The translations under genes were made by a program, and so were the position numbers. A stretch of DNA of 63,703 nucleotides, filler included, from Rhabdomonas costata (taxonomy: Eukaryota): NCBI GenBank assembly GCA_019059605.1. It is 30 parts of 30 records of this genome, joined end to end, with 100 filler letters (N's around TTAATTAATTAA, not from the genome) between each part and the next. Parts side by side here need not be neighbours in the genome. Positions count along the whole stretch, not along the records: positions 4,255 to 6,280 come from JAHMHO010006301.1; positions 6,381 to 8,406 come from JAHMHO010006302.1; positions 8,507 to 10,531 come from JAHMHO010006303.1; positions 10,632 to 12,657 come from JAHMHO010006304.1; 26 more parts are not named here. One strand, 5' to 3'. Of this stretch, positions 4,837 to 63,703 are shown in pieces (positions within the stretch are counted from its first letter, which is position 1; every line of letters begins with the position of its first letter). The notes below the pieces were generated by a model. The model ran no database searches. It saw only the letters and a program-made list of their open reading frames with translations, and was not told where the DNA came from.

Positions 4837-6383
4837 TCACTCCTGGAAGCCCTTCCGGTTCATTTCAGACACGAAAATGGGAAGAGAGCTTTTCAAAAAC
4901 GGCTGCACACCACAAAAAAAAAGCAGGTAGTACCAACTCTGTAATGCACAGTGGGAGGGAGGGAGGGGTTCAGGCTGGGCTACTCACGGGTACGCGTGAG
5001 TGGAGTTACTCCTACATTGACACTTCAAGCACAACGGCCAAACAGTTCTGTTCTGTATAACAAACGAATTGCAATTAAGAAGGATGTTGCCATTGTGAAC
5101 TTCTTGAAGAAAGGCTTTGCGTGTCCCGCTGGAAAGGCTATTCCAGAAAATTGTGTGATGAAGCCCGCGAGCAGCGTAACTCTCAATCGTGCAAGGATTC
5201 TCTCTCCTCACCATAACATCTGATCCGTACAAGAAAGACAAACACCGAAGGTAACAGCGTCTTTTCTGCGTCCCATTTTGTGTGCTCCCTTGCTCCGCTC
5301 CAGCAGAGCCTATATGGCCAGCCAAAGTGCAGCCCAACAATCCCTCGGCAGTGAAAGGAAAGTGCCAGAGTTTTCGCCGAGACAGGCGGTTTGGGCAATC
5401 ACCCGGGGCCAACCCTGGGGATGTTGTGGTGCTCTGTGTTGCAAAAAAAAATACCGCAAGAGATGATAGAGAGAGAAAACGCATCAGAAGACAGAATGGA
5501 CTCTAGGATGAAAACAAAGAAGGTATTCCTCACCGCACCAGAAAGCAAGTGGGTTTCGGTGTGTTAGCTCTCGCTTGCATTTCAGTTAATAATGATTCCA
5601 AGGGAAACGACAGGGAGCACCTATCAGCACATTGATTCAGTCCTTACCGCGGAGGAAAGACCACGGGAAAATCAAAGCAAAACAAGGGGGGAGAATCGTC
5701 CAAAGGAGCTCAGGCACAATTTTTCAAAAGTCGACGAACGCTTGGCATGGGCAAGGTGCCAGGTGAGGAAGACCGGTTTCACGATTGATATAGCCGATGT
5801 ATCAAGGGGAAACACTGGCGACTCCGGAAATCTCCACAGACCTCCGCAGCGCAAAGAACACAACGACCGATGAGCTGAGGAACTAAATACGAGCACAGTA
5901 CACAAGCTCGCATGAATGAGCACGCGAAAAAACATCCACTAACTCTTTGAACTCATCCCTGCCACGTTATCACGTCAATGATGGCCCAGTGTCGTCTATG
6001 TGACCGCCAGGTAGACCTCTTCCAATACTTTCTCGGCCACCCTTTTGGGCGGAATTGCCAACTCATCCAACTCACGTCTATTCATGCCGAAATCCTGCAA
6101 ACGTTGCCCACGTACCAGTCATCGTGGACAGTTTGGCGTTGAGCTCATCGATGCTGTCCCGATAGGTCTTCGAGGCAACCTTCTTGTACCTCTCCGCGGC
6201 CTGCGACACCGCAGACGCGAAACTTGAGCTAAACGCTTAACCGGTATACCCCAACTGAAAACGCAGCGAGAACCAAAACCNNNNNNNNNNNNNNNNNNNN
6301 NNNNNNNNNNNNNNNNNNNNNNNNTTAATTAATTAANNNNNNNNNNNNNNNNNNNNNNNNNNNNNNNNNNNNNNNNNNNNTGG

Positions 6384-6646
6384 GTGTTTTACTTAATGCT
6401 AATATACGTTGATTTAGTATTTTAACTGTTATTTTATTACCATAATTTACATATGTCGCATCAAGATTAATTGTATATAACTGATTATCATTTAATTGCG
6501 ATATTAAATCTTTGATATTATTATCTAAATTTTGTTCATTTAATAAATTACGATTTGTGATCATTTTAACAATATTTGTAAGTACGTAATATCTTACGTT
6601 TTGTTTCATTATTAATTTCAACTGGTTCAAAAAGTTTCTGTTCCAT
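6384..6646 (-). pseudogene. Giant-virus-type RNA polymerase subunit RPB5-like N-terminus, frameshifted
   Basis: MEQKLFEPVEINNETKRKI, then a frame change near 6585 into VLTNIVKMITNRNLLNEQNLDNNIKDLISQ...KITVKILNQRI. It resembles the Mimiviridae RPB5 N-terminus as I recall it, and the start context is AAAATG. Confidence 0.55.
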
Positions 6647-6763
6647 TTTATATTTATTTGTTTTATTATATTTATTTGTTTTTTATATTATTTATTTTAT
6701 ATGTTACTATATTTACTATATATAGTAAGTATATAGTAAGTAGTATATACTACTACTATATAT

Positions 6764-6822
6764 TACTACTACTACTACTACTACTACTATATATTTTATA
6801 TATAGGGTTAGGGTTAGGGTTA
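6764..6822 (+). repeat. (TAC)n microsatellite followed by telomeric (GGGTTA)3 at 6805-6822
   Basis: Sequence reads ...TACTACTACTACTATATATTTTATATATAGGGTTAGGGTTAGGGTTA. Confidence 0.9.
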
Positions 6823-7046
6823 TGCCATTTAGTCATTAGATTATCATTTACATCTTCACTATTTTTATGTCTAAAGTATGATTTTCGTTTTGGACCATCT
6901 GCACATATTAATTCATGACCATGATTGCATAGTATATTTATTTTTTGATTTATATTCTTATAATTTTTGATATATTCTGTAATATGAATGATTTCATTAT
7001 TTATATATGCATACTGAGATTCAAAATTTTTATTGCATTTCTTCAT
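6822..7046 (-). pseudogene. Truncated NCLDV CoiA-like family gene (N-terminal part)
   Basis: LCNHGHELICADGPKRKSYFRHKNSEDV...MTKWH resembles the C-x2-GHEL...YFRH...MTxWH N-terminus of CoiA-like giant-virus proteins. The frame then runs into telomere repeats (NPNPNP) and microsatellite. Confidence 0.55.
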
Positions 7047-7128
7047 TTTTTATCTATCATAAAAAATAGTGTTCGTCTTTATACTTTTATATTTATGTTA
7101 TATTATTAAATAATGATACATAAAATTT

Positions 7129-7592
7129 TTAAAAAGTAAAAAGAAGAGAACCTAAACCATTAACGATTTGTAATACATTGTAATTTAATACATAAATTCG
7201 AACATCAAATAAGGATGAATTGGAAACCAGTGAATTAAAATTAATATTTAATGTATTCTTTTGTTATTTGCCCATATTTGAACATCCACTTGGTTGCATC
7301 TCTTCTGGATATAATGAAAATGAATATACATTTATACCTAATGTTGGTGTACTTGTATGAGATATATACGGCTGTACACAATTGTAATATAATGATGGCA
7401 AGTCAATAATACGATTATAACCATTGTAAAATAACGATGAACTTAATACTGGTTCTATTTCATTTGAAGATTATTGGAGCTCATTATTATGTGACATTTG
7501 TATATGAATTCATCATCATATAATTGTAATTGATCAATTAAATATTCATGTTTCGATTGCGCGAATTTTTTACGTTCCATACTATCTATATA
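7129..7592 (-). pseudogene. NCLDV major capsid protein (double jelly-roll) fragment with internal deletion, frameshift and premature stop
   Basis: Manual translation gives YIDSMERKKFAQSKHEYLIDQLQ (7592-7524). Another frame gives EPVLSSSLFYNGYNRIIDLPSLYYNCVQPYISHTSTPTLGINVYSFSLYPEEMQPSGCSNMGK*QKNTLNINF...RIYVLNYNVLQIVNGLGSLLFTF* (7455-7129), with in-frame TAA at 7264-7266. These match the MCP motifs ERRRFAQxxHEYLIEQLQ, VQPY..H...GINVYSF.L.PEE.QPSG and YNVLRI..G.GG. Confidence 0.92.
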
Positions 7593-7918
7593 TATAATTG
7601 AATAATTTTATTTAATTAGATGTTGTTTTGTATTAATATCAAGTATATTATTGTTAATATTTTCAAAAAAAAATAATGTTCATTTAAGGTTTATTTTTCT
7701 TTAATTCTAAATATTTTGATTTGTATTTTAAATATTAATTTTAGATCCTATTGTCGATAATATATCATTAATTTTACTTTCAACTTCTATTATTTTCTGC
7801 ACATTTTTATCAAATATATTTAATTTAAATGTTATAGTACCATGTCCATCAGGTGACATTGCTAGTGCAGTATGATCTACTAAATCTTTATATTGTTTGT
7901 ATAAATATATTAATTTAA

Positions 7919-8405
7919 TTATATTAATTTACAATCTTCTAATGTTGTATAATCAGACATTGATATACGTATGATTTTATTTGAATAACTGGGATTAATT
8001 TTCATAGATGCTAAAACATGTGACAAATCACCAGCATGACAGGCACTACCTACAGATACATAAATATTATATTCACTTAATCTTGCAACTAATGTTTTAT
8101 TACACATTTTAAGATCTTCAAATATGACAGCTATTGTATTATCCATAGAATTACGTTTATAAGGACCAACAATCAACACATTAAAATTATTTAATTCACG
8201 TAATAACCAAAATTTTAATTTACGAACTTTACTATTTGTTTTATCTCTGTCTATATGAACTTTCTCAAATGCTTTTGTTAATCCAGATATATACCCAACA
8301 TGGTGTTCCTGGACGTAATCCATTTTCTATCGAACTACCAATACGATCTGGATTATTCGATTCATAATGTTTAAAAATATTAAGAACACTTGGATGTTCA
8401 AATGA
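7919..8405 (-). pseudogene. NifS/IscS-like cysteine desulfurase, internally deleted and frameshifted
   Basis: SFEHPSVLN (8405-8379) is followed about 20 codons later by ENGLRPGT (8327-8304). After a frameshift near 8302 come VGYISGLTKAFE...IYVSVGSACHAG...SHVLASM...IIRISMSDYTT. The catalytic GSAC is present but the PLP-lysine segment is missing. Confidence 0.85.
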
Positions 8406-10912
8406 ANNNNNNNNNNNNNNNNNNNNNNNNNNNNNNNNNNNNNNNNNNNNTTAATTAATTAANNNNNNNNNNNNNNNNNNNNNNNNNNNNNNNNNNNNNN
8501 NNNNNNTTGTTGTGGGGGACGATGGTGACGCCGTTGTGCAGGTAGGCGCCGGGTGGAGGTGCAGGGCCGAGGATGGGAGGGGAAGGGCAAAGGCCCGTCA
8601 TTTTGGCGCAAAACAAGGCAAGACACAGGCCAGTGAGAAGGACGATGTAAAGGATATACTTTGACACACCGGCCTTTGAGATGTGGTGCAGCGGATGCAA
8701 TGATTGCATACTTCCTCTGGAAAGTCAGGGCAGCCTTAAGTTGTGGCAGATGCGATGATTACGTTAATTACCTTTTTGTGCAGAAACCATTACCTTGTGT
8801 GTTTACTTCGTTTATCTCTTTTGTCTTTGTTCCCGGGCTTTATATTCATACTGCCTGTTAACCATGAAACTCGATTGCCAACACCATTTGTGCTGTGATG
8901 TCAACCAAGGATGTCCTTACAGACAACCTTACACAGCCTTACAGATAGAGGTGAACACTTGTCACCAAGTGAGTTGCAGGGACCATTTGACAACGACCAC
9001 GAGGGAAACTGCACCCTGTAATAGGGTGGAAGACCCATTGGAACCACTAACATGTCTACTGCCTCAAACCGATCGGTGTGTGGAAACGTCGGTTGAAAAC
9101 CAACCACGAACAGCTTTTTGCAGCATTGCAACTTCGACGTCATCCCAACGCATCCTCCCACTTACAGAAAGGCACACCCTGATTTCGAGGGACACTGCAG
9201 CGTGCAGAGGAAAGATGGAAGAGAACTGACAATGAGCTCACGTTATACGCACACGTCACGAAGTCTATACCTACAATACACCGTGAAATTAGACACACTC
9301 GACATGACATATAAGCCATAACCTTAACTTGAAAAGTCCCCCGCGCGGTGCTGGCCATTCAGGTAGGAGACTAGGAGGGGCCATCCAAGCATGGCCAAGT
9401 ACAGGATTGCGAGGGGGTAGAATGCAGCCGCAAACACTGTGAAGGAAACAACTCAAAATGAACGCGAGAAAGGTCGGTAAACCAAGCTCTGCCTCCAAGG
9501 GTTATTAAGGCACCGGAACGCGAAACCCTTCCCGTGAAAACTGCTGTTCACACCCAGAAACCATTCAATCACAACAAAGGACGGTGAGTCACACACTATC
9601 ACACACTATCCAAAACGCAGGCAAGAACAAGGGATAGGAAGATTGTCCTATACACGCCACCAAAAACATAGACCGCCGACTTATTGCAGTGGCTACTCGA
9701 CGCTGGGTATGGTGTGGTTGAGATGCAGGAAAGGCGTCGGTGTGGACGCGAAGCAGAGTACGTGCCCGTCATCCTGGGTGGGTGCTTGGCGGAGCAAAAA
9801 AACTATGGAAATTCGAGAGAATACGCAAAAAAGCACACCCAAGTGGGCCTGGGAAGACCGCCAGTGTGGAATCTAAGAAAAGAAAATGGATAGGAAGCGC
9901 CTCCCTATAAAAGAGGCCACCACACATGGAAGAGGGAGGAGTATGAGAAACAAAACTTGACCTGGTGCTTATTTCACAACATTGAATATGAGCAACAGTG
10001 CAACAGCACACGGATCAGAACTTGTGCCTGTCACACTGATTAAAAAAGCAAGGTCGAGAAAATCACTTTTTTCAAAAAAAAAAAAGGGATAGAGACGCCC
10101 CTGGGAAGATATGGATATGGATGATAGGATATGGGAACGATGATGCACTATCCATTGAATAACTCATCGGCACCGAGGGTACGTTGATTTCATCACCTTT
10201 CTCTTGCCAGGCGAGGGCGACTGAGGTGCCGCAGTCGAAGCATGCTGGATTCGACGAGCACCGTGGAGAAACTCCATCTCCAAGTCCCGGCGCTCGGAGT
10301 TCTCGAGTGTAACCACAAACCTTCGGGTAAATTCTCCCTCCACTGCCAGGTCCGCGAGAAGGGCCTCCAGAAGGCCTCCCTGAAAGAAGCCACGTCACCG
10401 GAAACACATCCGTACCCATTGACAACCTACGACGCGCTTCAGAGTTCACGGCATTCATTATTCTCATGCTACTCTCAGCCCGGTTCAATACGCAGGCGCA
10501 GATCAGATGCTTACCCCGGAACACCACCCACNNNNNNNNNNNNNNNNNNNNNNNNNNNNNNNNNNNNNNNNNNNNTTAATTAATTAANNNNNNNNNNNNN
10601 NNNNNNNNNNNNNNNNNNNNNNNNNNNNNNNAGGGTGGAGAAGAAGAGAGTGGGCCTCTGCTCCTTCTCCCCCCAGATTTAAAGGACTTTGGAATGCGTC
10701 CTTTGTAGGGGGCGGGGGTGAAAACTGTGCGTTGTTGTACCCCTTTTTCAGTATGCGCGTTCATGCTTGTTTTTCATTTTGCGGGCTTCCCATCCGGTTC
10801 ATGTCACAACACATACACTGTAATGCTCGCGTCGTGCTCTGTTTATTTCCATTGTTGACTCACTAGTATGTTTGCGCGTTTGTGATTTGCTTGCTTGTCA
10901 GTATTTGTGAAA

Positions 10913-22884: not shown

Positions 22885-25599
22885 GCAGTGCACGACCCTC
22901 AACCGCCCTTCACACGCACACACTTTAGAGCATTCCTTCAAACGAGTTTTTGTTTCGCAACACACCTATGATTGGATGCGAATTGCCGCACCAGAAAAAA
23001 GCCCTGGCGATCCTTTGTCGCTGATCCTCTCGCCGCTTTCGGCCGCACCTCCCTTTTCTGTCCGAAGTTGATGCATTTCGATCTTTGCAACGTTGTCAGC
23101 TGCTGGGCTGCCACTCCGATCCCTGCCCGCACTCATAGCCGGGCTGCGGAAAAGTACGCGCGCGCAAGTCTGGGTTTGCCAACTTGACAAAAAATGAAAC
23201 TGCAATACTTCTTGCGCACGTGAATGTTGTCAGAGGCGCCTGCTGTCCCGTGGCGTTGCATGTGTGTGCATCCCTCACCAACCCCCNNNNNNNNNNNNNN
23301 NNNNNNNNNNNNNNNNNNNNNNNNNNNNNNTTAATTAATTAANNNNNNNNNNNNNNNNNNNNNNNNNNNNNNNNNNNNNNNNNNNNGTGTGGGGGGGAAG
23401 CAGGTTCCGGAACACAAAAGAAAGTTTGTGATGTTTCGCCATATACCCTTTCTAGCCGATCACATTACAAACTTTCCTTTGTGTTCCGGAACCTGCTTCC
23501 TCCCCACCCTCGATACACTTTGCGGCGTGTTTTGATGCAAGCCTCCTAAGCCCCATATTCGCCGCACCGTCCCGCGGCCTTCGGGCCGCTGTTTTAGGTC
23601 CGTCTGAGTGTTGTTTGGTTTCCAGTTGAAAGTCGTTGAGTTATGAGGCACGTGCCCGTCCTACCTTCCCACCTTGTGGGCAAACCAGGAGTGTACTAGC
23701 AAACGAAGCATTTATTCCGCACACACGGGCGGGAGTCCGAAAGAGGGCCGGTCAAGCGGAGCCACTCAAGCTTTCAACCCATAGCGCTAGCATCAACGCA
23801 CCCTCCGGTAGCGCCGAGGCGGTGAGCCTTCCGACAGGAAGAGGTATGTTTGGCGCCTTGGTCCACCTTAAAAATAGTACTACCATCCCTCCTTGTGGCC
23901 TTGGCGCTAGTATTTCGACACCTTTTGAGATTTCACGACTAGTGCGAACTAGCTCCAGGTTGTCATCGCCCATGGCCTTTGAAAAGCTGCATGTGAAAAC
24001 AACAATCATCACAGCTACTACCTTACTAAGGAAAATATAAGGTCAAGTTTTGAAAGCTCGCCTTTCAATCGGGACCTCTGAAAAGGGTTTTCTTCAGCTT
24101 GCGCATGGTTTTGCAGTGCTCTCCTTGCCTTCAGGACTGGCAAGTCTTACAGAATCTTGCATTTGGCCGTCAGGATACACGCCTACGGCACAATCCAGTT
24201 TCCAGTGTCCCATACCTGTACCGTGCAACTCGCCATCACACATCTCTTGAAAAATGGCAGCAAGGCAACAACGCATTGCGAGCAACTGCAAGACACTGCA
24301 CTGCAACAAAACAAGCGCAGGGGTGAGTATTTTCATAGCCAACTGCGAAAACGTGCAGAAACACACTCGTGGGGAAAAAAGGAGGAACACCAAGCAACCC
24401 CCGACGAGGATATACAGACAAGTGGCCTTCCACACAGGTTGGTCCATCCCCTTTGTACTCAAAGTAGTCCTTGTCACATACAGCCTTTAAAGCGGCGGCA
24501 CGCCGATTCCGGAAACCCAAAAAGTCCATATTCCAACCGCAGGAAGCTTCGCAATGATGGGGTAAGGAATGCACCGTCACCCCCTTCCTTCCCCCCCTTC
24601 TCCACAGATGCGGGAAAATGACGCTGCTCTGCCCGGAATTGCTCCCGAAAGCAGCATCTGCCGGGTCTTCTCTCTCAGTCTCAGTCATGGATGGTGACCT
24701 CACTTCAGCTCGGGCTCATCGCCAGACAGCACATTGGAAAGGTTCACCCGCAAGCTAGTGTGCGGACACTCTGTGACCTCTTGGGGAGCCTCCGCCGCGG
24801 CCGCCCGCGCCACACACTGCATCACTCCACCGTAGTGCCGCGTCATGGGCATCCCGCCGTGAGTAATCCCCTTGCCAATACTAATGTTCGTCAGGTGGTG
24901 TACCAAGAAGAGGCGGAAGTAGGGCTCGGGAAAGATTGGAATGAGCTTTGTGAGGTTGCAACCTGTACATCTGGGCCCAGCAAAGTCTCCAAAGATCTGC
25001 AGGTGTGCGCAGGGACCTTCGTTCGGGGGGTGGGGCCAGAAAATACTACATGCACGCGCAAAGCAAAGTGAAGGCGACACGAGAGAGGGCTTGGATAATA
25101 GACAGGGGTGCCCTCAAACCAGCGGCGACAGTGCGTTACTCATCTGAGCAAAGAAGCCACGGCCGGCTGCGCCATTACCCCTCACCGCGACACACAATTG
25201 CAGTCACTATCACGAGAACCCGTGCAAAGAAAGAATAGGAGAAAACCAATTTTTACAGTACCATCAGCGGAATCACGTCCGCGACAATGGGTAACAACAG
25301 TGGATACAGACGCATGACATACTCACGTGCACTGGTATTCTTCCTTCTTTCTATAAAAAGCCACATCGAAAAAGTAAAATCTATCTGGCGATGTTTCCGT
25401 TACCAAAAACANNNNNNNNNNNNNNNNNNNNNNNNNNNNNNNNNNNNNNNNNNNNTTAATTAATTAANNNNNNNNNNNNNNNNNNNNNNNNNNNNNNNNN
25501 NNNNNNNNNNNTATGTTTTCACTACCCCCCCCCCCTACACACACACACACTTGCTCGCAGTCTCCGGCCCCCGAAGGCGCACTGGAGTCCCAAGACAGC

Positions 25600-25602
<3 letters not shown>

Positions 25603-25658
<56 letters not shown>
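25603..25658 (+). repeat. (GT)n microsatellite
   Basis: About 28 GT units. Confidence 0.95.
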
Positions 25659-25661
<3 letters not shown>

Positions 25662-27713
25662 AGATGTTGGTGGCTTCTGCGAGGGCTTGCTGTTCATTGT
25701 TTTAGAGAGATAATTTGGAGAGGTTTTTCTCTGAATGAGCCTATCTTCCTTTGCACACGGTACGCAGTGACAGGGATGGACATGGATGACAACGACGTGG
25801 ACCGCCCCGCGGATGCCCCAGAGCCCCTGTCTGCAAGGCACTGCCTCTGCGCCTTCTCTTCTTTCGTTTCCTTTTTCTCTGTCTTTCTACCTTTTTCTGG
25901 TCTTTTTCTTTTTCTTTCCTGTTTCTCCTTGCTCTCGTTTTTTTTCTTTCCACACGCACAAAGAATGCCTCTCTCCTCCCCCTATCCTATCCTCGCCTTC
26001 TCCATTTTAGGTGTGCGCCTTAGTTAGCAGGCGGTCATTTTCTTTTTGAGGCAGCTTGCTCTGCTCTCAGTCTGAACCCATCTCCTTCCCCTTTCCCCAT
26101 TGCACAGCATGTACGTGCCAAAGCTGCACGGCAGCTCCCGGCCCCTCCTCGATGAGGCTGAGATGATAGCGGTATGCGGGAGCTTCCTTTTTGTGAATAC
26201 CTCTTTCCTTGTGTTATCCTCTGTGCTGGAAGAATTTTTTAAAAAAATCGGCATCTAGGGGGCAGTAGAACAGTAAACCTAACCCCTTTCGCTAAAATAA
26301 CATCATCTAGTGAGTACAGGCACAGTTAACCTAAGCCCCGTGCTGAGAAAATGACTTTTTTGAGGAAAAATTTTCTTTTACCATTTAACGCCGATAATCG
26401 TTTAACATCGTTAAACAGCAAAAGTCATTTTTTGCAGGACCCCCCTCCCCGGCAAGTCCCCGCCTCATCCGGCCGCTCCGGCCGCCGCGGGCTGGAATAC
26501 AATTGTTCCCGCTTAAGCGGGGACATGTCTTCACAGTTTTTCCTGTACCTTCGGGGCACCGCCAGTGCAGTCATCCCCCAAAAGACGGGAACTGCGTCCA
26601 AGCGCACCTACTGTATTCTTCGCTATTCTTCGGAAGCCGATATTCACAAGGCGGACGGCAAAACTGGGCTGAGCGGACCAAATTTCAACCCCTTTGCACC
26701 CCTGGAGACATGAGATGGCAAAATGCCAGTTCACACAAGAGGCTTCTCTTCTTCAGTGTCCGGCAAATAGTCTGGGCAATGCCTTGCCTCAACGACTGCG
26801 CTGGAACGTGCACCACAGCATAAAGGGAGATGGTATTGCACTTAACGCTGCCCTGCATGCGCTCCCCCAACTATGAGTCGTGACATCTTCGTAAACTCTT
26901 GAAAAATTCACACCACAAAGTTCACAAACCATTCCCTTTTGTCAGAAACCAATGTCAAACAAAAGCAAAAAGTAAACTTTACTGCCAACACAGAGGCCAG
27001 GAATTGAGCACCTAACCTTAACAAGGATATTTACAGAAAGAGCCAGGTTTTTTCCTCTCCAATGGAGGGCGCACAGGAGAAAGAATAGAGAAACAGGAAT
27101 AAAACTGGCAGCAAAAACAACTAGAAACTTCCAGAAATACAACGAGCCAGGTTTGGACAAGAACGGAGCCTGTCTCAAGCAAGCAAAAGAAGAGACCTAT
27201 GCGGTCGTCTGGAGAGAATACGTTGCCCAACTGACAAACAAAAGCCAGCAAGAGAGCACCGCGGATACATTCCAAAAAGAGAGAGTACGCCCCCCCCCCC
27301 CGCCCCTCATTCGACTGTTGTATCTTGAGGAGGAAAGGCTGGAGGACTGGGAGGGGTGGGCGAAGGGGAGGGCGTGGGTGTGGCGGTGTCCACATCACAA
27401 GGATCATCAATAATAACCAAAACTTTCGCCTGCTGGGAAACGGGCTGAACCTTCGGCTTCGGGTCCACAGTGACAGATTGCAGCACAATGCCCCCCGAAG
27501 GTGCGTCAACACCATTGACTTCGGGCCCAGTGGTGTCAGTGTCCGCACTGGAGTGCGCTCTCTTGCGCCACCAAAAGAAGAGAATCACGCCAACGGTAAT
27601 GACAACCNNNNNNNNNNNNNNNNNNNNNNNNNNNNNNNNNNNNNNNNNNNNTTAATTAATTAANNNNNNNNNNNNNNNNNNNNNNNNNNNNNNNNNNNNN
27701 NNNNNNNGGGGGG

Positions 27714-29732
27714 GTGGGAACTACGCCTGCGTTTGACACCCTGCCTGCGGACGTTTGCGATGGCAAGCGGTGGAAGGACTGGTGCGAGTCGGAGAAGCCA
27801 GAGGAGGAGAAGATGCCCATGGAATGGAAGAACCTGAGCCCGCTGCCCAAGCTGCTTGTTTTGCGCTGCCTGGTGTGTTTCGATTCTCGATCCTTCGCTT
27901 CTTGTTCTCCTTTTAGGGTAGGAGCTCAAACAGGACAAATAGAAATGCGTCCAATTGAGATACGGCGCCGAGCATACGAACATTTTCATGGTGCTCTAAC
28001 CGCCACTTGACTATGTGCCGTTATTGCGGTTGCCACATACGATGGGCCGGGTTCCAGTATATTTTTGTTGATGTTACGACGTTCAGGGTTTTCATGTTTT
28101 TATCATCCGCGTCGATTTGCAGAGGCCAGATCGGTTGACTGCGGCTCTTGAGAGCTTTATTTCGGCCAACATGGGATCGAAGTACATCAAGGACCAGGCC
28201 GTCGACTTGACGGTCTCCTTCCAGGACAGCAGCCCCACAACCCCTGTTTTTTTCATTCTCTCGCCTGGGGTAAACCCGCTTCTTGACACTGAAGCCCTTG
28301 GACGCAAGCTTGGTTACACTGAGGACGCTGGGCTCTTCCACTACGTCTCCCTTGGGCAAGGACAGGAGCCCGTCGCCGAAAAGGCCCTGGAAGCGTGCTT
28401 CCAGCGTGGAGGTTGGGTCTTCCTTTCAAACATCCATCTCACCCGCAAGTGGCTCCCCATGCTTGAGAAGATTCTGGACATGTACTCCGAAGGTTTTAAT
28501 CGCCAGGCACTCGCGGCTCGGCGCAGGCTCGAGGAGCGCCGCAGACGCACTCTTAGCCGCTCTTCCCCTCGACCTCAAGTTGCCGAACCACCTGCAATCG
28601 AATCCGGCCCTCCGGCAGATCCTGCATCGGCCCCAACACGAGAGACAACCCCTTCAGCTGAAGCGCCGCAGCTGGAGCCGCAACCACAGCCGCCCCAGTC
28701 GCAGCCAGAGTCGCAGCCCGCAGCTCCCGAAGCGCCAAGCGCGGAGCTGCCTGTTTCCAAGCAAGACGAGGAAGTCGAAGAGGAGGTCGAAGAAGAGGTC
28801 TTGGTGGGCGGGATTCGTGGAAACAAGAACTTCCGGGTCTTCCTCTCCGCCGAACCTTCTGAGAAGATCCCGGCGGTATGGTGCGGTTTTATTAAGGTGG
28901 TGCATCTTTTGGACAAAATTTTTCTTTGCCCTTGTACCAATTGGTTGTTGCCCCCTGTACGTATCGGGCGATGTGCTAGTTCAACCTAGTTCAACCTAAG
29001 TCCAGCCTTTGACATGTATATATATTCCTGGTATAATTCATGGATCCCATGTTTCAGTGTGGGTTTGATTCGTTTGCGATGATGCTTCAGTCGAAATTGC
29101 CCTTCTCAGGGTATCTTACAACGTTCGATCAAATTGACGAACGAGCCTCCTCGGGGGCTCCAGGCGAACATGAAGCGCGCTCTGGCATGCTTTGGTGAGG
29201 AAACGTGGGAGGCCTCGTCCAAGCAAGCGGAGCTTAAGTCGATTATTTTTTCCCTGTGCTACTTTCACTCAACCATCGTGGAGAGAAAGAAGTTTGGGCC
29301 GCAGGGTTGGAACCGGAATTACCCCTTCAATCTCGGCGACCTGACGACTTGCATTGCGGTTTTGAATAACTACCTTGAGGACAGGCCAAAAATTCCATGG
29401 GATGACCTGCGCTACGTCTTCGGTGAGATTATCTATGGCGGCCACATTACTGACGACTGGGACCGCAAGCTCTGCATGACATATCTGGAGAACTTTATCA
29501 GAGCCGAGGTTGTCGACGGGATTGAGCTGTGCCCTGGCCTAGCCGTACCTGGTGCTATGTCTCACAAGGGCTACCTGGAGCTAGTGGAGCGCGAGTTTCC
29601 CTTGGAGTCACCCATACTCTACGGACTACACCACAACGCGGAGATCGGTTTCCGCACAACGCAGGGGGATCAACTCTTCCGGACTATTAATGAACTCCAG
29701 CCCCGGCAGGCAGCCACCGGATCAACCAGTGG
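27714..29732 (+). CDS. Axonemal dynein heavy chain (outer-arm beta-like), AAA6/C-terminal region; exons about 27714-27872, 28123-28875, 29110-29732
   Basis: LRCL|RPDRL, FFILSPGVNP, VSLGQGQE, GGWVFLSNIHL, FRVFLSAEP, SIKLTNEPP, CYFH..ERKKFGPQGWNR.YPFN.GDL, PWDDLRY.FGEI.YGGHITDDWDR and LYGLH.NAEI. Confidence 0.97.
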
Positions 29733-31989
29733 NNNNNNNNNNNNNNNNNNNNNNNNNNNNNNNNNNNNNNNNNNNNTTAATTAATTAANNNNNNNNNNNN
29801 NNNNNNNNNNNNNNNNNNNNNNNNNNNNNNNNCCGATCTATTGCCTCGCTGACTCTTTTCCCTGGTGTGTCGATTGCCATTGGTGATAGCATGACGGCTC
29901 TGCTTTCTTGAGATGCTGGATGGTCCACTTGTGGGTGCCAAACTGACTGTGTCGAGCATCGAATGGTACACCTTTCTCATCGAACACTGCGTAAATACCG
30001 CCACATGGTTTTTTAGACAAGCAGGCGAGTCTCTGCCAGCGAAAAAGAAAGTGTGGGCCGGGGGTCAAACCGGTCTGGCTCCTGGGGAGGCGGCAGGAAG
30101 CTGCGAAGGCAGGGGGGTGCCCCCGGCGGCACGTGTGGGCGCCTGGGCAGTGGAGTTCAAGGGCCATGGCCAGCTGCCATTGCCACCGCGAAGAAGGCAC
30201 TGGGTCAGTGCAGAGGCCTGCATCGGAATACATTCACTATTGCGAATGTGTGGTGAAGAACCCTGTCGTCCAATGATACGCCGTTTGAGGGGGTGGTAGC
30301 GGTGGTAATCATAAGTTTACCAACAGTGGTCATCACATCAACGACCTGGAAATAGATAGCAATGTTCCAGAAACGCACCATCCTTCAATGATTTCCAGTA
30401 GTAATCATGTTAACTGTCAATGCAATCGTACCTTCCCCAAATATCATCACTGGGCCCACCAACAACAACGCAATGATCAAGTTTCACTGAATCGGACAAC
30501 ACACATTTTCCTTGGGAAACCAACACAGTCCGATTGCAAGCTTCAGTTACGGGAATAGTGGGGTTCTTTGGGGTGGACTGCGACGCTGGAAACGAGAGGT
30601 GTAGGATTGCTGGAGGTAGGTTGTGGACGTGACTGTTACAAGGGAATCCCCAAGAGGGTTGCAGTGTAGCGAAGATTTGGCCCGGATAAGAGCGCGTGAC
30701 ATGATTTGTGTGTAGTCTAGGAAGGTGGTGTTAGCGGCGCCAGGGAACAAGAGCGCGGGTACCATGCACTCCGAGAGGAACTTCAGCTGCGAGCTCCACG
30801 GGGGCTCCTCTCCCTTGTCCCCAGCGCGGTGCAGGCCGGCTTGCCGTTGAGTCAGCGGCATCATCAGCATCGCCGCCCTGGGGGCGGCATCCGGGGGGCC
30901 CCCAGAGGGGCCCTCCAGAAGCGCGACCTCCCGCGAGTCCTGTGTTCCATGGCAGCCAATAAATGACCTGAAACTCTGTTTTGCACTTGGTAGCGGTAGT
31001 CGTTGATATTATTAGGAATGTTCAGCTGAATGGCATGTCCTTAGCGCGGCTTTCTGCCCGTGCCATCTTCCTGGCCAATTGCTGGGATGCCGATCCACAT
31101 GAGTGTCCCTTAGAACTCTCACAAAAATATCGGAATGGCGAAGCCCCTATCTGAAAAAGTCGCTGTTAGGGGAAACTCCAAACCCGAACAAAAACACTTC
31201 CACAGAGTTTATTTGGAGTTCTTCCCCTTCAGGACGATCTGGCGCATGGGAACCGACACTTCCCGGATGCCCAACCTTCTGCGCTTGTCAAGCCCAACTT
31301 TGTTCCTCCTCCTCCTCCTCAGGCTTTTATTCGCACACAGAGAACAAAAGCATTGGGTGGATGCCACGTGTACCGAGGAGAGACGACTGTACGGCAGAAG
31401 AATCACTCCGCCGTCGCCTTCTCCGCGCTGCTCGGGAAGGACCCTAGCGCCATTCCCGCCTCGGCCTCGCTGGCGATAGGGCCGCCCAGGCGTACCATGC
31501 CTCAAAGAGGCCACAGGACCTCTGCAACCACACAGACCTCAAAGCTCACGCTGGAAAACACTATTGGCAGTCACGCTGCAGAATGATGGGCCTTGACTAA
31601 ACCATCGATAAACACAGGTCTGTGAGATGATCACAAGGATAGGTCTTCAAAAGATTGGAAGGCGATGAACTGGTTCGAACCAAAAACCCAAGGTTGGCTC
31701 CATCCGGAAACAGCGAGTTTCTGTAAAACCGTTGTGAAGGACGCCGAGAACAGAAACCGTGTTTGGACTCCTTTGTGTCCAGGTTCACGTTTTGACAACT
31801 TCCTTTTCCCCCCTTGGTTTTGCTGTGGTGAAAGCAAGGTTAACCTTCACAAAACAANNNNNNNNNNNNNNNNNNNNNNNNNNNNNNNNNNNNNNNNNNN
31901 NTTAATTAATTAANNNNNNNNNNNNNNNNNNNNNNNNNNNNNNNNNNNNNNNNNNNNGTGTTGTGGGAGTATTTCACTTACCTCACCAC

Positions 31990-61050: not shown

Positions 61051-62337
61051 GCTCTGCCACCCCAACACCCAACCCATCTCACACTTCACCATCTCACACA
61101 TCGTCGCACAGCACTCAGAAAACCCGAAATACTGAGGGTTCACGCAAAAATAATCACTGGTACATAAATTCTAATGGCGTACCATGTGATTTTGGCAGCG
61201 AGGACGATCTCACCCATAGAAACGAAAGCGCATCGCACGATGGGTGGCGATGATCTACGGCTTCTTTGCCACACCATGTCCAGCTCTCCGTGGATCTCAC
61301 CAAATGGCGAGGGGGTTTTCTTTGGCCTTCATCGGCGCAAGGAAGCATTTTTGATGGAAACCATGAGAAAGTACAGTGCGAAGCGAGTCGATGGGTGGGT
61401 GGGGTGCACAGTCAAAGTGCACAGTCTACAGAGCAATTCATGCGGTCACAGCAAACGTGTGGCGACAAGAGTAAAGTAAGGTCCGGAATGGAAGTGGACA
61501 ATGCACCTCGAACGGGAAGGAGCACAAAAAAGAGAGAGCTGACCCAACTGAAACCCGTGAGAAACGCTTCCCACAAACANNNNNNNNNNNNNNNNNNNNN
61601 NNNNNNNNNNNNNNNNNNNNNNNTTAATTAATTAANNNNNNNNNNNNNNNNNNNNNNNNNNNNNNNNNNNNNNNNNNNNGGGGGTTGTGTGCACACGGTG
61701 GGTGCATCAGCGGCTGCTCTGGACTTCGGATCAAGGCCTGGCAACTTCGGCACACCGAGTCTGCTTGCCATGAGGTTGTATGGATGGATGGGGTGAGTTG
61801 GGGCTTCCCAGAAGCTTGCCATCGTGCGCAAGTCCCTCCGAGCCCGTGACTCTGCTCTTTGAGGCCTCTTCAGAGTTGCGCCAGTGGTGAGTGTGGTGGT
61901 AGTCACCAGAACAGCGGTTTAATGCGCCATTGAGGTTCCGAAGAACAAGACGTCCTAATAACAAGACGTATACGCAGAAATACGTTAAGATTCAGGGCTA
62001 CCACCTTCGGTTGGAATGGAGGCTGTTGAAACGACGGTTTTCGCATTTTTTGTGTGGTAATGCGGTGGTTTTCGACGGGTATTCAGGAAGAGCCATGGAG
62101 GTCCTAACCGTGAGGATGTGGGGATATGACGTGAAGTGTGCGCAATTTTCACGGAGCATCGTGTGCTCCTGTCGCTCGGGATCGGTGATGCTACACAGTT
62201 TAAGCTCTGCTAGATCTGCTAGTGTTCACCGCACCGGCACCTCCACCCCACCACGTGGGCAATCGGGCTCTATTTCCACCAAGAAGCCCGCAAAGATGAA
62301 CGAAAATGGGCTGGAAGAGTGCACGGCAATTTCGCCT

Positions 62338-62478
62338 CTCTTTCTCTCTGTCTCCTTCTCCTTCTCTTTCTACTTCTCTTTCTCTTTATTTATTTATAAA
62401 TTTATAAATTCATTTATTTCCTTCCTTCCTTCCTTCCTTCCTTCTTTCTTTATTTCTTTATTTCTTTATTTCTTTATT

Positions 62479-62510
<32 letters not shown>

Positions 62511-62532
62511 TATTTCCTTCTTTCTTTCTTTT
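62338..62532 (+). repeat. Compound pyrimidine-rich microsatellite (TTTC/TTCC/TTTA)n
   Basis: Visible tandem units. Confidence 0.93.
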
Positions 62533-63703
62533 GAACTCCGCAATCATTGCGCCTTTGTCCTCCAAACCTTTCTTCCTGCACATGCTTTAAGGCTCGTGAG
62601 TATTTAATCGAGTTGTATGGGGCTCGACAACTGTGAAGGTTTTCGGGTGTGATGGGTCGTATTTTCAGATGTAATGAAACAACTCTTCTTATTGACTCTC
62701 TTTATTTTCAAAATTGTGCGCTATGTATTCCGAACGCAATGAACTGACGCGACATCCACGTTAACCACATGCTGTGCTCAGCCACTAATGACGGTCAGTG
62801 TAGCTTGCTACACCGAGGTGTATGCCAGCGGAAGTGGGGAGTGGAATGTTTTGTTGTTTTGAGAGTGCAAAGTGCATAACTCACTACGCTGAAGCTTTCT
62901 AATGCTCATCCGCTCATCCGTGTTGAATGCTTTGAGCGCAGGTGGACCACCCACTTTGGCACTTTGCTGAGTTTTAGCTGTTGCGAGATTCCCACTATTG
63001 CAAGAACAAGTAAATGTCTTCTTTTTGTGATGTGTGTGGTGATCAAAAACTTCACTAGTCACATCTGATAAAAAGGGGTTGAAAGGATACCGTAAAAATA
63101 TCATTAAAGCGGTGGTTCTTTGAATACCATAAAAGTAGATTCACGCTGGAGTTTGCCGTCGTGGAGACCACTGAGGTGTGGGGTCATACTTCCATGGCGT
63201 CTTTTGAGAGAAAAGCGCTGGAGAAATTCATGTTACACTAGGCTGTTTACTCAAAATTGTTGTGCGGTGTTTCGACGTGCCTCTCTTTAGCGTTGTGGAT
63301 GTACCTGAGTCGGTGGGTTGTGATGGAGGAACTACAATGATTGCCGATTGTGTGGACTTGTAAATGGCGTGCCCAGAATTTGCAAAAAACAAAAAGAGCA
63401 CATTTTGTCAATTGTTTTTGAATCTACTTTCCAACTGCTGGAAATAGCACTGTGCTCATTTCCTCTTTCATCAAACACACAATAGTATTTGCCAGTAGAA
63501 CCAAAGCTATTAGCACAAAGGCCACTCCATTCAATTGCTTAATACCAAGACTAATATATCTGTGTTCCACTCGCTTTTATTAGAGTATACTTGTTCCTTT
63601 GTCATCTGCTGATTCGTACAATATCCAAGGCACGTGTTCTAGTGTTCTCGCCTTTTTTCTTTACAATTTCTCTTTTGACCTCCACGCATTCTCCACAAAA
63701 CAA

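Follow-up and report, generated by a model that had tools for sequence, protein, structure and literature searches.

Endogenous giant-virus DNA is already on record for Euglenozoa. Eight stretches of viral DNA known as giant endogenous viral elements (GEVEs), of 86-311 kb and 25-37% guanine plus cytosine (GC) have been described in Euglena gracilis, whose genome has about 51% GC; they show signs of erosion, one of them is part of a telomeric region, and one is an outlier of 25% GC (Jivaji et al. 2025, J Virol, PMC12455990). The same source describes eroded GEVEs in green algae, Amoebidium and Porterinema, where the integrated elements have suffered truncations, deletions and the loss of core genes, and gives Bodo saltans virus (Deeg et al. 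2018, PMC5871332), of the Imitervirales, as the one isolated giant virus named for Euglenozoa (PMC12455990). In this study, we examined a window of 63,703 bases from the Rhabdomonas costata assembly GCA_019059605.1, which consists of 30 contigs of 2015-2096 bp each, roughly sorted by size and separated by N44-TTAATTAATTAA-N44 spacers. Our subject is one AT-rich contig at 6381-8406, which carries remnants of a NifS-like gene, a giant-virus major capsid protein (MCP) gene, a CoiA-like gene and an RPB5 gene. The sequences beside it in the window say nothing on physical linkage, because they are unrelated contigs of the same assembly.

Like the E. gracilis GEVEs, the contig is low-GC Nucleocytoviricota DNA in the assembly of a euglenozoan of about 50% GC and displays erosion; those elements, however, have host flanks and Asfuvirales markers, whereas the present contig is 2 kb long, has no flanks, and its MCP and RPB5 are not asfarvirus-like (PMC12455990). 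Moreover, the duplicated marker genes in E. gracilis were judged by its authors not to be pseudogenised, whereas the contig is heavily pseudogenised (PMC12455990). It shares truncation and deletion with the eroded GEVEs of green algae, Amoebidium and Porterinema, although those rest on long assemblies with host junctions (PMC12455990). Bodo saltans virus, which is mimivirus-type and has a euglenozoan host, may offer a further parallel, in that a weak grouping joins the MCP of the contig to long-form MCPs from AT-rich contigs; that virus differs in being free and replicating. Because the E. gracilis elements were published in 2025, the contig is at most a further case of a known phenomenon (PMC12455990), and the remark in the initial annotation of this DNA that few such records exist for euglenozoans is out of date. 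At present it amounts to a short, unlinked fragment that belongs to a phenomenon already described. No report of a non-Asfuvirales GEVE in a euglenozoan was found in the literature searched on giant viruses of Euglenozoa and diplonemids, which does not by itself establish absence.

Within this single contig we observed frameshifts at three sites and one nonsense codon; over half of the capsid gene is gone, and one gene start breaks off in simple repeats. Compactness, with short spacers, and AT-richness of viral type are kept across the four co-oriented genes. The GC fraction is 0.229, against 0.435-0.566 for the remaining 29 contigs, so that the AT-richness which first drew attention to the contig stands, and the minus strand carries every recognisable coding remnant. 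The four co-oriented remnants of the initial annotation are thus confirmed in their orientation, and NifS, MCP and RPB5 in their identity by homology, while the identity of the CoiA remnant comes from language-model features. Viral hallmark genes are found together with a composition unlike that of the other contigs, which is one mark of a GEVE, the other being physical continuity with host chromosomal sequence. Read from the sequence, these data support a viral origin and a decay of the contig's genes. We therefore lean, with slightly better than even confidence, towards regarding the contig as what is left, without function, of a segment of a giant-virus (Nucleocytoviricota) genome, most likely an eroding endogenous viral element in euglenozoan nuclear DNA.

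The capsid gene carries the clearest marks of damage, being preserved in three pieces. Against Pfam Capsid_NCLDV (PF04451, cut-off 34.8 bits) pieces 1, 2 and 3 scored 20.9, 71.7 and 18.7 bits, respectively, so that pieces 1 and 3 alone fall below the cut-off. With a custom hidden Markov model (HMM) of 429 states, built from 73 distinct MCP open reading frames (ORFs) of 400-750 residues from 77 IMG/VR loci, the E-values were 3.9e-11, 1.6e-24 and 8.5e-9, respectively. The three pieces leave two parts of the model uncovered, states 1-226, which are the N-terminal jelly-roll, and a run of 59 states inside it (260-318); the internal loss takes in the NFNHPxKELxW strand that is present in all eight aligned references. 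With two frames, an in-frame TAA and these missing states, the contig holds no complete double jelly-roll MCP in one open frame. A search for remnants of the N-terminal jelly-roll elsewhere on the contig, ORF-X included (hmmsearch --max on six-frame ORFs of at least 8 residues), gave only matches at E>1. The TAA fits a nonsense mutation and not a reassigned codon, because all eight reference MCPs have isoleucine, leucine or valine in that column; an alternative genetic code was rejected on the same ground, and the frameshifts would remain under it.

When 1.84 billion representatives were searched with the main frame of the RPB5 fragment, 23 homologs reached E<=0.001; nine of the ten homologs tested carry the Rpb5 C-terminal domain PF01191, and three of the ten are named RpoH/RPB5 in their source. 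The preceding codons in the other frame, MEQKLFEPVEINNETKRKIL, align with P0005 at residues 9-21, where 10 of 13 are identical, and with P0008 at residues 7-23, directly before the main-frame match, and a surplus base near 6586 accounts for the frameshift. The C-terminal domain would lie beyond the contig end (6381, about residue 96), so that the loss of the 3' end is a limit of the contig and not a lesion.

The NifS-like remnant is also broken. Its 135-codon frame scored 33.3 bits against Pfam Aminotran_5 (PF00266, cut-off 21.5), and the fragment aligns with residues 244-361 of 384 of the NifS structure 1ecx, where its GSAC stands opposite SSAC in the loop whose cysteine we take to be catalytic. 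A +1 frameshift by one surplus base occurs near 8303, inside the conserved GT-x-x-V-x-G stretch: ...ENGLRPGT is read in the upstream frame (8405-8265), and at HHVGYISGL the reading passes to the 135-codon frame. No single open frame was found, and the N-terminal part of about 220 residues, including the PLP (pyridoxal phosphate)-binding part, lies beyond the contig end. Word-based protein searches found no longer NifS homologs; the NifS query of IMG/VR confirmed three of 56 candidates, all weak, and neither of the two MCP relatives' records contained NifS, both records being incomplete. The neighbouring ORF-X had no match in Pfam, the protein atlas or the fetched loci.

The CoiA-like start was recognised from language-model features, which agree with CoiA_N clusters at 0.93 (201-207 of 256 shared; recognition low at 2063). 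The Pfam search of the contig ORFs gave no match to the CoiA family (PF25164 CoiA_N / PF06054) at E<=1, word-based protein searches found no sequence homologs, and the CoiA query of IMG/VR confirmed none of ten candidates. The match stops at ...MTKWH, and the frame then passes through (CCCTAA)3 and, after a spacer, into (GTA)14. Telomere-type and microsatellite DNA does therefore stand among the gene remnants, as initially annotated, and both have been located (Table 1). The imperfect inverted repeat at 6716-6805 might fold into a hairpin, and breakage or misassembly is plausible at this point. Short interstitial telomeric repeats are known from the vertebrate literature as sequences left at repaired double-strand breaks. 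The contig resembles such repair scars in having about three TTAGGG units exactly at the end of the CoiA-like match, and differs from scars proper in that its 18-mer also occurs in AT-rich viral contigs.

Table 1. Positions of the features recognised on the AT-rich contig, in window coordinates.
Feature	Position	Strand	Basis or remark
AT-rich contig	6381..8406	.	2026 bp, 22.9% GC, artificial N spacers at both ends
NifS-like (class V aminotransferase), C-terminal ~165 codons, two frames	7919..8406	-	Pfam Aminotran_5 and 1ecx alignment
ORF-X, 66 codons	7728..7928	-	overlaps NifS stop
MCP piece 1 (ERKKFAQSKHEYLIDQLQ motif), ends in TAG	7458..7607	-	HMM states 227-259 of 429
MCP piece 2, frame differs from piece 1	7267..7470	-	HMM states 319-384
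In-frame TAA between MCP pieces 2 and 3	7264..7266	-	column is I, L or V in 8/8 reference MCPs
MCP piece 3, C-terminal end	7132..7263	-	HMM states 387-428
CoiA_N-like N-terminal 74 codons	6825..7046	-	language-model features; frame then enters repeats
Telomere-type repeat (TTAGGG) x3.3, i.e. (TAGGGT)3.3	6803..6822	+	abuts end of CoiA-like match
(TAC)14.7 microsatellite	6748..6789	.	part of low-complexity block 6645-6823
Imperfect inverted repeat, GTA/TAC-rich, 70-86% complementary	6716-6745 / 6776-6805	.	beside TTAGGG tract
AT-rich tandem repeats, periods 9-20	6645..6747	.	part of low-complexity block 6645-6823
RPB5 first 20 codons (MEQKLFEPVEINNETKRKIL), frame differs from remainder	6587..6646	-	protein alignment
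RPB5 N-terminal domain continued (VLTNIVKMITNR...)	6382..6585	-	open to contig end

The nearest MCPs in IMG/VR and the JGI metagenomes share 45-49% identity with the fragment over about 108 residues. The MCP query confirmed 77 of 100 candidates in IMG/VR and 75 of 427 in the metagenomes, with a best identity of 49% in each. Using the RPB5 profile, eight of 27 IMG/VR candidates were confirmed (best 49%), and the contigs with these relatives are 113-481 kb long with 24-28% GC; the RPB5 query of the metagenomes confirmed none of 218 candidates. GC content was 20-30% in the 11 related loci that were measured. The capsid match of 71.7 bits and the RPB5 homologs on such contigs bear out the view that these genes are derived from Nucleocytoviricota and AT-rich in the manner of free giant viruses. 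For synteny, the contig ORFs were compared by tblastn with 283 fetched loci, and in none of these was MCP found together with NifS, CoiA or RPB5. In a quick maximum-likelihood tree of 74 MCP C-termini, the fragment grouped with the long-form MCPs of loci L015, L051 and L020 at a Shimodaira-Hasegawa-like approximate likelihood ratio (SH-aLRT) support of 85, not starred and with a long-branch warning, and its end branch, at 1.86, exceeded all others, the median being 0.063. The MCP tree foreseen in the initial annotation thus gave a weak grouping with AT-rich relatives. The three grouped relatives have two to three MCP genes each. Several MCP-like matches within about 6 kb were also noticed in each of L025, L032, L038, L040 and L041. 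Tandem arrays of MCP paralogs are thereby suggested for the group related to the contig's MCP.

On the sequence evidence, the lesions are probably real. It would be an improbable outcome that they are artefacts of low-coverage assembly, or of chimeric joins through low-complexity repeats, in viral genes that are otherwise intact. Such an origin would suit an assembly that is highly fragmented into contigs of about 2 kb, and the repeat block, low in complexity and holding the imperfect inverted repeat, is prone to misjoins by assembler or amplification. However, none of the three frameshift sites (NifS, MCP and RPB5) stands in a homopolymer run of more than three bases, and elsewhere in the window a host exon, of dynein, is open without a break over 215 residues (302.7 bits), so that indels do not pervade the assembly. 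Base-calling errors do not typically produce an internal loss of 59 states or the absence of the N-terminal half of the MCP, and these two large losses are not errors of that kind; at least five independent artefacts in 2 kb would be unlikely. A larger share of our doubt goes to a free or episomal giant virus, from an infection of the culture or sample or from another organism, in which the contig would be a region with accessory genes in decay and a surplus MCP paralog; we regard this as rather unlikely. Some observations that would suit it also weigh against an endogenous element. No host-like sequence flanks the contig, whose window neighbours are unrelated contigs, and it gives no sign of drift towards host composition, because its GC content equals that of free relatives (20-30%). 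A free virus would also agree with the compact spacing and the shared orientation of the genes; NifS and CoiA, for their part, are accessory, and the 5' end of NifS is lost to the contig end and not to a lesion. Arrays of MCP paralogs are common among the nearest relatives, and where a locus holds several of them, a live virus might carry one spare MCP in decay. From an in-frame ATG at 6609 the RPB5 frame stays open and could yield a nearly full RPB5 lacking only its poorly conserved first residues, and the long MCP branch, which otherwise favours decay, could represent a divergent lineage and not decay. The telomere-type repeat is weak evidence for integration. An exact scan of IMG/VR with the contig's 18-mer found at least 120 loci, and among the 120 matches listed, 12 AT-rich contigs have a GC fraction of at most 0.31; also among the matches listed, the 18-mer lies between two convergent ORFs in a giant-virus metagenome-assembled genome (GVMAG) locus, L099, and inside an 841-codon ORF, coding GLGLGL, in L106. 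Some of the AT-rich IMG/VR contigs with the 18-mer may themselves be endogenous elements. What counts against a free virus is that every recognisable gene in 2 kb bears a lesion, including RPB5, which is normally single-copy, that NifS is broken in a conserved motif, and that no intact close relative was found in IMG/VR and the metagenomes beyond the 49% identity and the empty RPB5 query given above. The argument of the initial annotation that a replicating virus would not carry such lesions is consequently weaker than it was put, given the possible ATG rescue of RPB5, the MCP paralogs, the accessory nature of NifS and CoiA, and the TTAGGG arrays in viral contigs. Its statement that all four genes are broken holds for the frameshifts in NifS, MCP and RPB5 and for the MCP TAA; the missing NifS 5' and RPB5 3' ends are contig limits, and RPB5 may be rescued from the ATG. 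Likewise, in its account of a fossil insertion recording a virus-host link, the viral origin and the damage are upheld and the insertion is not, the contig being without a host-GC flank.

The MCP could also be a split, intron-containing gene of a working virus of the faustovirus type (Asfuvirales) with its other exons off the contig, which we consider highly improbable. The faustovirus MCP gene is indeed split, and NifS is shared with that group, as given below. However, pieces 1 and 2 of the present MCP overlap (7458-7470), so that neither an intron nor the 59 missing states would fit between them, and the TAA stands in frame without a spacer. The MCP fragment had 11 matches in the PDB at E<=1, to capsids of the PBCV-1 (Paramecium bursaria chlorella virus 1) type and others, and none to African swine fever virus (ASFV) p72 or to a faustovirus capsid, for both of which PDB entries exist. 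With the RPB5 profile, eukaryotic RPB5 scored 106 bits, whereas the lowest of the 21 matches, at 43.7 bits, was to the viral 'RPB5 homolog' chain 8q3b, presumably that of ASFV. Of the 14 relatives with GVMAG names, none appears in a published list of 35 Asfarviridae metagenome-assembled genomes (MAGs; PMC8005611). The same source reports NifS genes in ASFV, Faustovirus, Pacmanvirus and 21 of the 35 Asfarviridae MAGs, which counts for an asfarvirus affinity and, with it, for the split gene (PMC8005611).

Taken as sequences, MCP and RPB5 do not appear asfarvirus-like, and the traits expected of an Asfuvirales member were not found in them; the placement at the level of order leans towards an Imitervirales-like virus. 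The 529,694-bp record of L015 encodes a MutS of 1091 codons, which we take to be typical of Imitervirales. The motif AAAATTGA, which we assume to be of mimivirus type, was sought on the contig and not found. A fuller account can be offered tentatively, and we doubt it more than we trust it: a mimivirus-like virus of Imitervirales type would have left the relic, in a lineage separate from that of the published Asfuvirales elements of Euglena, the relic would reside in the nucleus of an intron-bearing euglenozoan, and its TTAGGG tract would be a telomerase-type repair scar. If that were true, a second, independent giant-virus lineage would have entered euglenozoan nuclei.

Returning to the eroding endogenous element, in whose favour stand the density of lesions and the strong precedent in E. 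gracilis, we suppose that giant-virus DNA entered the nucleus and that, after selection for virion production had ceased, small indels, point mutations, deletions and repeat expansion would have built up. Repair of a double-strand break in the nucleus may have left the short TTAGGG tract as a scar at the CoiA breakpoint. The element would now be without function and would serve as a record of past contact between virus and host. Should integration be true, it would add a virus-host record for Euglenozoa, and the lineage may differ from the published one.

Further occurrences of the telomere-type repeat were noticed in the fetched loci. The (GGGTTA)3 18-mer stands in identical flanking sequence in the IMG/VR loci L106, L117 and L198, and TTAGGG-type arrays of 26-130 bp, some of them degenerate and near contig ends, were seen in L099 (5072-5103), L116 (152-177), L128 (10269-10581), L146 (5888-5916) and L162 (1108-1226). 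Such arrays of giant-virus MAG contigs could be telomere-like ends of viruses, or the binned 'viral' contigs could in part be endogenous elements.

The other contigs of the window inform on the host. Of the further viral pseudogenes that the initial annotation had in view, no MCP signal appeared on the other 29 contigs at E<=0.01, and Rfam and tRNA scans of all 63,703 bases gave no match. Two ORFs of the contig at 27708-29732 encode a dynein heavy chain. Exons of the outer-arm type were noticed at 28072-28989 and 29083-29784 on the plus strand, with about 96 residues missing between them, and a low-complexity stretch rich in arginine, glutamate and proline after the first exon suggests an intron or an insertion. 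Kinetoplastid genes are intron-poor. The best PDB match of the dynein was 9e5c (302.7 bits), presumably a Trypanosoma structure. It was followed by 9y6s, from the Leishmania axoneme (298.6 bits; PMC12637542), and by mammalian chains at 283.7 and 281.8 bits, Tetrahymena at 229 and Chlamydomonas at 228.2. A euglenozoan with introns is accordingly a fair reading of the host, since the dynein matches kinetoplastid axoneme chains best and its gene is interrupted. Simple repeats were seen elsewhere as well: a (GT)n microsatellite at 25512-25700, at the start of the contig 25512-27607, reads CVCVCV..., and a long T/C-rich low-complexity tract at 62300-62600 encodes repeated SFFLSFF in an open frame of 234 codons.

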